DNA of 64,000 nt, taken from a virus. The stretch lies in IMG/VR virus record IMGVR_UViG_3300033066_000693, positions 1 to 64,000 of that record. One strand, written 5' to 3'. The notes below the pieces were generated by a model. That model saw only the letters and a list, made by a program, of their open reading frames with translations. It ran no database searches and was not told the origin of the DNA. How positions within the stretch are numbered: position 1 is the first letter of the stretch; the number at the start of each line of letters is the position of its first letter. The translations under genes were made by a program, and so were the position numbers. Below are positions 58,389-60,218 of the stretch, piece after piece.

Positions 58389-59006
58389 ATGACGATTACG
58401 GTTCCAACTCTCGAAGAAGCATATCAAAGGCTCACGATTGATCCATTGTATGCTCTCATGATCATGCCTGACGGGCAGCATATCGAGTTCGTCAATATGG
58501 CGTCACCAAGGTCTATTGACCTTGTGCCCGGGAGTTTCAATCCGCTTCATGATGCTCACAAAGAGCTTTATGTAGCGTGCAAAGAACCAGAGTCGATTAA
58601 GGCATTCGAGATCTCTATTCGGAGATTCGACAAGGAATTCTTGTCCTTGGAGGAATTGAAGGCACGAATCAAGCAGTTTGCTTGGTATGCTCCGGTTTTG
58701 ATTACGAATGCGTCTCTGTTTATCGAGAAATGCGGTCTTCTCAGTAATTGCTCAAAGCGCCCTCGCTTCCATATTGGCGTAGATACCGCAGAGCGCATTA
58801 TCAAAGCGCATGGAGTCTCAGGAACTCAGGGAATCTTTGGAGAGTTCGTGGTTTACGACCGGCTAGTTGAAGGCAAGATTCATTCCATCAATGATTTCCC
58901 GGTCAAGCCCAACAACTTCCGTCATGGAGCTTTTGTTTCTGGTTTGGTACACGGGATTAGCTCAACAGAGTTGAGGCAAAATGGGAAAACGCTCGCTCAC
59001 CCTTGA
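58389..59006 (+). CDS. nicotinamide-nucleotide adenylyltransferase (NMNAT/NadM-like)
   Basis: (H/T)xGH-type motif GSFNPLHDAH and ISSTELR motif. Confidence 0.75.
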   Translation: MTITVPTLEEAYQRLTIDPLYALMIMPDGQHIEFVNMASPRSIDLVPGSFNPLHDAHKELYVACKEPESIKAFEISIRRFDKEFLSLEELKARIKQFAWYAPVLITNASLFIEKCGLLSNCSKRPRFHIGVDTAERIIKAHGVSGTQGIFGEFVVYDRLVEGKIHSINDFPVKPNNFRHGAFVSGLVHGISSTELRQNGKTLAHP

Positions 59007-59030
59007 TTGTGAAGACTGATCAAGTATAAT
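59003..59030 (+). promoter_or_regulatory. sigma70-like promoter TTGATT-n16-TATAAT with spacer GTGAAGACTGATC
   Basis: perfect -10; overlaps the NMNAT stop. Confidence 0.5.
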
Positions 59031-59661
59031 GAGGGGTCAGCAGCTTTATTTTCAACCGCAAGGTGGAAATTCAAGTTCGAAGCGCTATCATGCCGATAGA
59101 CAGTCTACTGAGAAAAACCTACCAAACGTTCGCTCAGGAAAAACTAAAGATGTCGGGACTGGTCGAAGGACTGGACGGTTAACTTTCATCAAGTTTGGGC
59201 GCAAGCCTACCCCGTCTGCCATAAACATACCTTTCTCGCTGTCTTTCTCGCCAAAAACCGCAGGAATGCGGCCACTGGAATTAGTATCAGGTCGAAGAGG
59301 ATCGGTTAACCATGAAAAAAACGCCGATCTTCAACAACATATCTGATGCTTTTGACATTTGAATAGTTCTGGTCTACGAAAATCCAATGTCGCGATTGGA
59401 TAGTTGACAACGATGATAAGCATGCAGAATGCTGAACCTATAAGGTCGTAGATGGGTGACTAGGGTGGTCCTTTCGCAGGGACTTAAACGGTACCGGCAG
59501 CAGTTGCTCTCCTGTCGATTTACGATCAACCGCCAGTAATCTGGCTATGAGGGTGCGAACCCCTCTCAGCGTCTCATATGGCCTTAGAAAGCCAATGAGG
59601 GATCAGAACTACCAGCGGCTCCGGAGGGCGACCTCGGGAGTCGTTTTGAAGGAATAACTAG
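59031..59661. ncRNA. about 630-nt non-coding structured region upstream of rsr (candidate Y-RNA-like ncRNA locus)
   Basis: no credible ORF; T-arm-like GAGGG-TGCGAAC-CCCTC (minus strand GGGTTCGCACC), several hairpins, GTCGTTTT tail at 59640. Confidence 0.3.
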
Positions 59662-60195
59662 GTGCTAATTGATTCTATCATCCCGATGCAGAATTCTTTG
59701 CGGGATCTAGAACAAATCGCAGAGATGGTTGACTTTGTAAGAGGCGGGGGTATCTTTAGCCGAAGAGCATTAGACCTGTTTGCTCAAGAAAAGGGCATAA
59801 GGTCTTCTCCTCTCATAAAGATAGCTCGTTTTGAAGATCAAGCGACCTATCTTCACGACGGCCACCATCGAATGACTTCGATTTGGCTTGGAGGCAGAAG
59901 AGAGCTTGATCCGCAAGAATTCGTGATTGAAGATTGGAAGTACCAAGATTATCTCGAAATCAATCTTGATCAGACTTGGTACACGATATACGACCCGAGG
60001 AAAGAAGTAAGAAAAAGCAATATCAAGGGTTTCAAGAACAAGGTTGAGGCTTTCCTTAATGGAGAACCGAAACCAACCCTAGATCAGATTCGTTCATTTA
60101 TACTTGTCCGCTATGAGGCTCAGGAGTATACTGAACCTCGTTCCGTAACTCACATTTCGGAAGTGGCAAGTCGGCATACTCTAGCGATAAGCTAG
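59662..60195 (+). CDS. hypothetical protein immediately upstream of rsr
   Basis: 177 aa. Confidence 0.4.
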   Translation: MLIDSIIPMQNSLRDLEQIAEMVDFVRGGGIFSRRALDLFAQEKGIRSSPLIKIARFEDQATYLHDGHHRMTSIWLGGRRELDPQEFVIEDWKYQDYLEINLDQTWYTIYDPRKEVRKSNIKGFKNKVEAFLNGEPKPTLDQIRSFILVRYEAQEYTEPRSVTHISEVASRHTLAIS

Positions 60196-60218
60196 AGTCG
60201 ATTAGAAGGAGTTAGAAG

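Follow-up and report, generated by a model that had tools for sequence, protein, structure and literature searches.

The 64,000-nucleotide (nt) stretch of DNA analysed here (the window; IMG/VR record IMGVR_UViG_3300033066_000693, positions 1-64,000) appears to derive from a phage with a very large genome and encodes an orthologue of Ro60, rsr, on the plus strand at positions 60219-61913. The region upstream of this gene, 59003-59650, is most likely a promoter-driven array of non-coding RNAs that work with the downstream-encoded Rsr protein; two of its modules, M1 and M2, would bind Rsr, and a third, M3, is a candidate for the same role. This reading is preferred because rsr is adjacent, the hallmark motif is present, the architecture is like that of phage phiLo, the modules covary and lack a coding signal, and whole modules have been turned over among related loci. 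The structures, their conservation and covariation, their strand, their motifs and their linkage to rsr were all observed. The first-pass annotation had suggested this gap as the place to look for Y RNAs, and Y-type RNAs do appear to be encoded there, but their signatures, at 59162 and 59291, lie in M1 and M2, hairpins which that annotation had missed. Its naming of rsr was borne out by the TROVE (9e-33) and vWA_Ro60 (1e-49) domains recognised with Pfam, and Rsr is 44-47% identical to its best-matching actinophage Ro-like proteins in GenBank.

Loci carrying rsr were gathered by protein-guided scans of viral and metagenome contigs, by contig look-up of homologues of ORF177 (the open reading frame, ORF, that precedes rsr) and by DNA pattern scans; L-numbers are the labels of the compared loci. 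The closest relatives of the rsr region are held by viral contigs of 370, 494 and 506 kb, and the scan of metagenomes for relatives of Rsr added five loci and no more. Ten leaders were comparable (the window, L023, L009, L004, L027, L030, L031, L001, L003 and L022), and in all of them the gap upstream of ORF177/rsr measures ∼450-810 nt. Module content differs from relative to relative, as it would among independent RNA genes. L023 is nearly identical to the window (97% related). Every difference between the two that affects an RNA module or the terminal hairpin is located in a loop or preserves pairing (U-G to U-A, A-U to G-U and G-U to G-C, with one pair of helix P7 restored), and three more differences (59039, 59241 and 59255) fall in flanking or spacer stretches outside the assigned structures.

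The motif GNCGAAN0-1G near the 5' end is conserved in the YrlA and YrlB RNAs, where it probably contacts Ro, and a YUAY that follows it opens a variable loop (Chen et al. 2014, PMC4201824). Motifs of this type are found in M1 (GUCGAAGG at 59162) and in M2 (GUCGAAG at 59291). The composite pattern GTCGAAGN{5,9}GGTTAAC has two sites in the entire window, with 0 expected, and both are in the leader at these positions. Among the relatives, the composite G(U/C)CGAA(N)G-N5-9-GGUUA(A/U)C recurs two to four times upstream of rsr in nearly every leader-bearing locus, while more distant rsr loci and mycobacteriophage Catera carry the motif as GCCGAA..GGTTATC. The GNCGAAG-type motif is kept in M1/M2 of all ten loci, with the single-base variants GCCGACGG in L031 and GUCGAUG in L003. 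Both modules are encoded on the plus strand 0.9-1.1 kb 5' of rsr, within the limit of ∼4 kb for Y RNAs.

M1 (59153-59239) is closed by helix P1 (59153-59158 with 59234-59239). The GGU at 59161-59163 pairs with the ACC at 59229-59231, such that the CGAA at 59164-59167 occupies the 5' side of an internal loop opposite AUAAACAU. Helix P2 (59168-59178 with 59212-59220) follows, and UUAAC (59179-59183) then opens a branched apical region, whose hairpin is capped by a GNRA or UUCG tetraloop that differs between relatives. Across ten sequences and 20 pairs, 88.5% of cells were paired, compared with at most 50% for slid partners, and changes on both sides were seen in half of the pairs (10/20). In M1 the N of GNCGAA covaries with the base to which it pairs (U-A in eight sequences and C-G in two), which explains why this position is free in the published motif. 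M2 (59284-59349, also by covariation) has a P1 of 7 bp (59284-59290 with 59343-59349), an internal loop with GUCGAA(G) at 59291-59297 on the 5' side opposite CAACAACAUAU, a P2 of 9 bp (59297-59305 with 59324-59332), and an A-rich apical loop that likewise begins with UUAAC. Its nine sequences were paired in 97.2% of cells (slid controls, 35-52%), with changes on both sides in 13 of 16 pairs, values matched by none of 500 shuffles; as a single sequence it is far stabler than its shuffles (z = -5.57). Single-sequence folds of both modules agree with the succession of terminal stem, motif-bearing internal loop and second stem, and base changes in M1 and M2 obey the rules of base-pairing, not those of codons.

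A covariance model built from M2, designated R1, matches M1 at 59151-59240 (25 bits, E = 0.003) and finds further modules, termed M4, in L001, L003, L009, L022 and L027. With filters off, R1 also matches an analogous module just 5' of rsr in L013, a distant locus (29 bits), and modules to either side of the YrlA match in Catera (25.6 and 22.8 bits). Because R1 also matches these rsr-flanking modules, M1 and M2 were assigned to a hairpin-type (YrlB-like) kind of Y RNA that appears to be widespread beside rsr, and of which they are divergent new members missed by the curated Rfam model. In Catera (L015) the M2-like modules lie at 2594-2675 and 2870-2948 (GCCGAU../GCCGAAGG..GGUUAUC), upstream of the Ro gene and with the weak YrlA match (2735-2812) between them; the GenBank record annotates neither the two M2-like modules nor the YrlA match.

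The Thermus phage phiLo encodes two Ro60-binding Yrl RNAs 5' of its Ro60 gene, which were found by a search for an internal bulge that contains CGAA and is flanked by a stem of the 5' and 3' ends (PMC12135203). Like these RNAs (Yrl1 and Yrl2) and like YrlB of S. Typhimurium and M. smegmatis, M1 and M2 lie 5' of rsr on the same strand, with several RNAs per locus probably carried on one precursor, and they share the terminal stem formed by the ends of the RNA, the GNCGAA(N)G or CGAA internal loop, the second stem and the loop. They differ in sharing little primary sequence with those RNAs outside the motifs, and in the apical loop, which is pyrimidine-rich in YrlB, A-rich in M2 and branched with a GNRA hairpin in M1. 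A further difference is that M1 and M2 are carried by a giant phage.

In Rfam 15, YrlA is represented by RF02553, with a gathering score of 69 bits. Searches of the whole window at the gathering score, and of 58800-62300 (3.5 kb) and the 631-nt leader alone at E <= 10, detected no relevant family in the leader, and the transfer-messenger RNA (tmRNA) model did not match there either. The Rfam search for YrlA that the first-pass annotation had proposed thus returned no match on either strand. As a control, RF02553 was applied to the YrlA region of Catera, where it gives 36 bits; in another phage rsr locus it gives 38 bits. Since the Catera control is itself far below the gathering score, a missing RF02553 match says little for phages. 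No transfer RNA (tRNA) was found at 59003-59660 by the tRNA covariance model (RF00005) or by ARAGORN.

The largest module, M3 (59365-59610, plus strand), is a structured RNA of 246 nt, whose twelve helices were derived with RNAalifold and by inspection from five sequences: the window and its homologues in L023, L009, L027 and L030, a 5' remnant being present in L036. It is closed by an 11-bp stem P1 (59365-59375 with 59600-59610), followed by CGAAAA at 59377-59382, and P1, P2, P3 and P10 meet in a four-way junction that forms its outer layer. The inner domain has the topology of a tRNA. Its 7-bp P3 (59410-59416 with 59566-59572) leads through a 2-nt UA linker to a hairpin in the position of a D arm, and the domain further comprises a conserved three-way-junction core (59419-59529) with a long P5 in the position of the anticodon arm, a hairpin resembling a variable arm, and a T-like arm (59549-59565) with a 5-bp stem and a 7-nt loop, which abuts the 3' strand of P3 with zero nt between them, as a T arm does with an acceptor stem. 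Of the cells representing its 83 pairs, 94.2% were paired (32-45% when slid), and changes on both sides affect 42 of these pairs. Folded on its own by minimum free energy, the window sequence gives the comparative structure (z = -3.56).

The T-like arm is the hairpin GAGGG-UGCGAAC-CCCUC that was pointed out in the first-pass annotation. It is real, and it is kept by compensatory changes (GAUGG/CCAUC in L027, AAGGG/CCCUU in L009 and AAGG/CCUU in L030) in the T-arm position of M3. The loop, UGNGAAY, keeps U54, R57 and A58 yet is non-canonical, with G in the place of psi55, and no tRNA or YrlA model matches. The junction that follows P1 contains a degenerate form of the Ro motif, with the sequence UACGAAAA in the window, UUCGAAAG in L009, UUCGAAAA in L030 and UAGAAAG in L027. 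The sequence GGUCGUAGA in M3, considered as a third Rsr/Ro motif, was ruled out as such, since it is the 5' strand of the covarying 10-bp helix P5. Similarly, TTGACATTTGAATAG, which precedes M3 and was considered as a phage promoter, has no second copy in the window and was kept as a linker.

In YrlA, the effector domain is a circularly permuted tRNA (PMC4201824; bioRxiv 10.1101/312249). M3 resembles YrlA (RF02553) in being rsr-linked, in its tRNA-like domain with a 5-bp/7-nt T-like arm stacked on a 7-bp helix, and in its terminal stem followed by a junction that is CGAA-like, though degenerate. Unlike YrlA, in which the order is permuted (T, closed acceptor, D), the elements of M3 occur in the natural order of acceptor-like stem, D, anticodon, V and T; its D and T loops are non-canonical, whereas the D and T stem-loops of YrlA are near-invariant; and at 246 nt, compared with ∼110 nt for YrlA, it carries a 110-nt three-way-junction domain as its anticodon arm and has no RF02553 match. 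The closest counterpart in topology is Yrn1 of D. radiodurans, in which the T and D elements follow the order of a natural tRNA, separated by a stem-loop like an anticodon arm, and in which the termini form the Ro-binding stem (PMC4201824). The two were likened by published description, not by sequence, and Yrn1 differs from M3 in its length (∼120 nt) and in lacking both a V arm and the three-way-junction core. By its predicted structure M3 is new, in view of its natural-order tRNA mimicry, its length of 246 nt and its undescribed junction motif.

Within this phage clade, YrlA has its true relatives in the tRNA-shaped RNAs of L001, L004, L009 and other loci, which the window does not have. They were located at L001 3811-3933, L003 3873-3996, L004 1801-1922, L009 1796-1919, L030 2870-2995, L035 1-128 and L036 1276-1397, directly 5' of ORF177/rsr. 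Each has free ends on a 7-bp acceptor stem, a D arm and a canonical T arm (GGUUCGAAUCC), with GGUUAUC followed by a long variable hairpin, and the anticodon arm is replaced by a closed Ro-type module (..AACAUACC-GAAYA-GGUCGAAYGG..). The order of elements equals that of YrlA opened at the acceptor loop, and the RNA can therefore be described as an 'un-permuted YrlA'. The tRNA model gives 39-43 bits on those of L001, L004 and L009, and ARAGORN calls none. In L022 (∼1330-1930) and L037 (96-715) an HNH-endonuclease ORF has been inserted at the T arm of this RNA, an event that has cost L037 the 5' strand of the T stem and L022 the entire 3' part; in L022 the ORF sits after the RNA modules of the leader gap. 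The insert looks like a homing endonuclease aimed at the conserved T-arm sequence. A gene for a LAGLIDADG-type endonuclease (weak Pfam match) is located directly 3' of rsr in one relative (L027 5289-6092; also L028 and L029). Together with the HNH insertions, this gene points to frequent homing-endonuclease activity around the rsr locus.

Every relative except L031 contains M3, the tRNA-shaped Y RNA or both, and the window contains only M3. The role of M3 as the Y RNA with the tRNA-like module is favoured on account of this pattern, which agrees with the published rule of a single Y RNA with such a module in each organism (PMC4201824).

The core of M3 has a wider distribution. The three-way junction inside P5 has joining strands that hardly vary: UGAACCUAUA precedes P5, GUGACUAGGGUG links P5 to P6, and YKUAAnGGUAU links P6 to P7. 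This arrangement was recovered by pattern scans from four otherwise unrelated viral contigs, at L032 12366-12470, L033 3-111, L034 3086-3191 (minus strand) and L038 747-839 (minus strand). R2, a core model built from the five rsr-linked copies only, gives 22-34 bits on these contigs (E = 3e-6 to 4e-3), and compensatory changes occur in all four core helices of the free-standing copies. Shared with M3 is the series of a hairpin, UGAACCUAUA and P5 enclosing GUGACUAGGGUG, P6, YKUAAnGGUAU and P7; unlike M3, these RNAs are without the outer layer of P1, P2 and P10. The L034 copy is a tRNA-shaped RNA that has the core where an anticodon arm would be, its T arm being canonical and its end reading ..GCCGCACCA (CCA), and the L033 copy adjoins a tRNA array and a permuted tmRNA. 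Scans of bacterial genomes with core patterns gave 0 or 4 matches, those four being unrecognised by R2 and not upstream of rsr. Rfam assigned no family to the free-standing copies, including L032-L034, and when the core was set beside group I introns, RNase P, 5S ribosomal RNA, tmRNA, the hammerhead and ykkC by eye, nothing convincing was seen; no known ribozyme, riboswitch or RNA gene could be recognised in it. The M3 core may be a new structured-RNA motif with a tRNA-like context, absent from Rfam.

The array is preceded by a sigma-70-type promoter on the plus strand (59003-59030), with TTGATT at -35 (59003-59008), a 16-nt spacer and TATAAT at -10 (59025-59030). The strong promoter claimed here by the first-pass annotation is present: with 10 of 12 matches it is the joint best of eight sites in 58000-62600 (shuffles, 3.4 +/- 1.9 sites), and by eye equivalent promoters occupy the same place in L031 (TTGACT-17-TATAAT) and L009 (TTGACT-18-TATAAT). 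The site in L023 is the same as that of the window except for a C>T change at 59000. Transcription would start near 59037. The same annotation was right that ∼630 nt lack a credible ORF, as no conserved ORF was found between the promoter and the terminal stem-loop. The sole plus-strand ORF of more than 60 aa in the leader, one of 105 aa at 59029-59346, has its ATG within the -10 hexamer and would for that reason be absent from the transcript of this promoter; a 1-nt deletion at 59310 in L023 shifts the frame of its C-terminus, and no homologue was found in the other relatives. On these three grounds the ORF is judged, from sequence, not to be a gene.

As to structure and strand, the further hairpins noticed at first pass are present in the sequence. 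On the plus strand the leader folds better than its shuffles (z = -2.76), and the fold of the minus strand is weaker (z = -1.68). The RNAs were placed on the plus strand because many of the conserved pairs are G-U, which would become A-C if read on the other strand, and the earlier reading of that strand is not supported.

Between the predicted start and M1 lies a conserved 5' segment (59037-59150, plus strand) with an invariant GCCGAUAGA and a hairpin, H1. The H1 stem consists of CUGAG (59108-59112) and CUCAG (59133-59137), with the variants CUGAAA/UUUCAG, CUGAAG/CUUCAG and AGAG/CUCU recognised by eye, and its loop has the motif (G)CCUACCAA at 59118-59125 in nine of the ten loci, L027 reading UCUACCAA. 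RNAalifold found no consensus structure for 59027-59154. A pairing of the H1 loop CCUACCAA with the GGU of M1 was ruled out, since the change of this GGU to GGC covaries with the 3' strand of its own helix (ACC to GCC). The CUACCAA of the loop is invariant across the ten loci and is the exact complement of UUGGUAG, a sequence common in the D-loops of bacterial tRNAs; that it pairs with a tRNA D-loop target is pure speculation. A spacer hairpin, CCGCA-GGAA-UGCGG, was read from the sequence between M1 and M2 (59258-59271, plus strand), and by eye the relatives have a hairpin of other sequence in this position.

The array ends in a terminator-like stem-loop (59617-59642, plus strand) followed by G and UUUU at 59644-59647 (59617-59647 overall; z = -4.04), whose structure is kept by compensatory changes (helix 12). 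The U-rich tail noticed at first pass does follow a strong stem-loop, but it comprises just four U, too short for the terminator scan to call the element. In the window a GAAGGA resembling a ribosome-binding site (RBS) comes directly after the UUUU, and in L009 and L027 more RNA modules lie 3' of the equivalent hairpin. The element is probably a leaky terminator or a protective 3'-end hairpin.

Transcription, processing, Rsr binding and effector recruitment could then be envisaged as follows. A single transcript from ∼59037 would comprise the 5' segment, M1, M2, the spacer hairpin and M3, and would end at least in part at the stem-loop with the short U tract, read-through serving to express ORF177 and rsr. 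Several Y RNAs are cut from one precursor in M. smegmatis and D. radiodurans, and by analogy this precursor would be cleaved into separate RNAs. The stability of Y RNAs typically depends on Ro60. The CGAA on the 5' strand of the internal loop of M1 and M2 would contact Rsr, leaving their apical regions (the A-rich loop and the GNRA hairpin) free for an effector, for example the host PNPase, an enzyme that acts as a Y-RNA effector partner in D. radiodurans, Salmonella and phiLo. M3 would be a candidate Y RNA with a tRNA-like module, consisting of a closing stem, a degenerate CGAAA and a tRNA-like domain in natural order.

Several observations weigh against the reading of the region as an array of Rsr partner RNAs. 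The YrlA (RF02553), Y_RNA and tRNA models fail to match anywhere in 59030-59660, E <= 10 included. The stability of M1 by itself does not stand out from that of its shuffles (z = 0.09), and the comparative set is small, with 5-10 distinct sequences, several of them closely related. The T-like loop of M3 is without U55 and its D-loop is not recognisable, and a strict GNCGAAN0-1G is missing from M3 of both the window (UACGAAAA) and L027 (UAGAAAG). For the core, the alignment that includes the four unrelated contigs (A9: 93.4% of cells paired, 27 of 30 pairs changed on both sides) was fitted to R2, the very model that it tests, and the presence of the core in contigs whose fetched DNA gave no rsr-linked module in the scans means that it need not be specific to Rsr.

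It is unlikely that the whole 630 nt instead act in cis, as one 5' untranslated region (UTR) of ORF177-rsr (an attenuator, a riboswitch or an autoregulatory leader) that yields no stable trans-acting RNAs. Such a leader could work, for example, by the binding of Rsr to CGAA sites in its own message, which would set termination at 59617-59647, and the motifs of Rsr type would permit this feedback; the region also shares strand and promoter with ORF177-rsr, and the strong stem-loop and U tract stand directly before the RBS. The term leader, used in the first-pass annotation, says too little about the region: every module is closed by its own terminal stem, and modules have been gained, lost, duplicated and reordered among relatives in which rsr stays, so that they look like separate RNA genes on one transcript. 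Moreover, in L009 and L027 the hairpin precedes RNA modules and not an ORF, no alternative pairing between the 3' strand of M3 P1 and the terminator stem was seen by eye, and the equivalent modules of mycobacteria and phiLo are separate RNAs, bound to Ro60 in M. smegmatis cells and, for phiLo, in vitro (PMC4201824, PMC12135203). The cis-acting and RNA-array readings are not mutually exclusive. A small protein, or Y RNAs on the minus strand, would be a highly improbable explanation of the region. The 105-aa ORF does exist, and the minus strand reads a T-loop-like GGGTTCGCACC; the ORF nevertheless overlaps M1 and M2, whose substitutions follow pairing instead of codons, and its start and its fate in the relatives are as described above. 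The minus strand would turn conserved G-U pairs into A-C and has the weaker fold, and Rfam gives nothing for either strand. As far as sequence analysis allows, the coding and minus-strand explanations are refuted.

A more serious question concerns M3, which could be unrelated to Rsr, a tRNA-like RNA of the phage in its own right (a decoy, an element related to tRNA, an aptamer or a ribozyme) that happens to lie in the same cluster; we consider this possible, yet doubtful. A parallel is known from D. radiodurans, in which a tRNA-Asp is located between Yrn2 and Yrn1. R2 matches the four phage contigs, R1 and R2 scans of the DNA fetched around their copies found no rsr-linked module, and R2 has no match in more distant rsr loci; the tRNA array beside the L033 copy, the canonical T arm and ..GCCGCACCA end of the L034 copy, and the lack of a strict GNCGAAG in M3 would all suit an independent RNA. 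Set against this are five distinct rsr-linked loci that keep the place of M3 and its outer layer (P1, P2 and P10) with a CGAAA-type junction, a layer which the free-standing copies do not have, and the fact that M3 alternates or co-occurs with the tRNA-shaped Y RNA. The array of Rsr partner RNAs, with M3 as a candidate member, is the reading that we retain.

Downstream of the array, ORF177 (59662-60195, plus strand, GTG start) encodes a conserved protein of 177 aa with 14 homologues, and it belongs to the operon and not to the RNA array. Homologues are found in most of the ten loci (none in L001), immediately 5' of rsr wherever the downstream gene was readable and rsr confirmed, and the motif HDGxHR is invariant in their alignment. 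No sequence match was obtained for ORF177 in Pfam, PHROG or PDB. Its AlphaFold2 model has a mean predicted local distance difference test (pLDDT) score of 93.6, and the best Foldseek matches in PDB are all of the ParB/Srx fold (Atu1540, KorB, Noc and Srx), weak as they are (E = 5.6e-3 to 0.3, template-modelling scores of 0.3-0.37); the protein may adopt a ParB/sulfiredoxin fold. The operon ends 3' of rsr at an intrinsic terminator (61935-61968, plus strand) with a 10-bp stem, eight of whose pairs are G-C, and a T run.

Directly 5' of the promoter, a gene for a protein of 205 aa (58389-59006) bears by eye a nucleotidyltransferase-like motif, GSFNPLHDAH, and its homologue in L031 gives a faint CTP_transf_like match; the protein is probably a nicotinamide mononucleotide (NMN) adenylyltransferase. 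With the NAMPT gene (56138-57712) further upstream, the Ro locus is adjoined by genes of nicotinamide adenine dinucleotide (NAD) salvage. The window also contains a gene for a class II lysyl-type aminoacyl-tRNA synthetase (54645-56102) and six tRNA genes, among them a cluster of four for tRNA-Glu (47905-48244) and one with the anticodon CUA, called by ARAGORN as 'tRNA-Pyl' at 24364-24438, which would be an amber suppressor. These tRNA genes, the synthetase and NAMPT, together with the size of the contigs of the closest relatives, are what makes the window resemble a piece of a very large phage genome. The CUA tRNA may hint at reassignment or suppression of stop codons in the phage.

Ro60 and the Y RNAs are understood best from work on a few bacteria, and their role in phages has been studied only newly (phiLo, 2025). 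Giant phages appear to carry sets of Ro partner RNAs, with two to five modules per locus and lineage-specific gain and loss. Because the curated Rfam model misses these modules entirely, Y RNAs are likely to be under-annotated in viral metagenomes; the GNCGAAG-N5-9-GGUUAWC motif, combined with the covariance model of M2, provides a tool for their detection that reaches even very distant rsr loci. That a phage rsr should have Y RNAs beside it was to be expected, and it is M3, and perhaps its core motif, that may be the new part. Tentatively, M3 might represent a new class of Ro60-partner RNA, in which a Y-type scaffold carries a natural-order tRNA mimic, with the anticodon arm replaced by the UGAACCUAUA / GUGACUAGGGUG / UAAnGGUAU junction that is shared with free-standing phage RNAs. 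If so, a ligand, a protein or an RNA would bind at this junction, through which the phage couples Rsr to a new effector or substrate. The tRNA-shaped Y RNA of the relatives would be a natural intermediate between a tRNA and the circularly permuted YrlA, and as an 'un-permuted YrlA' it would trace the tRNA-like Y RNAs back to real tRNA genes, or show the two to be interconvertible.

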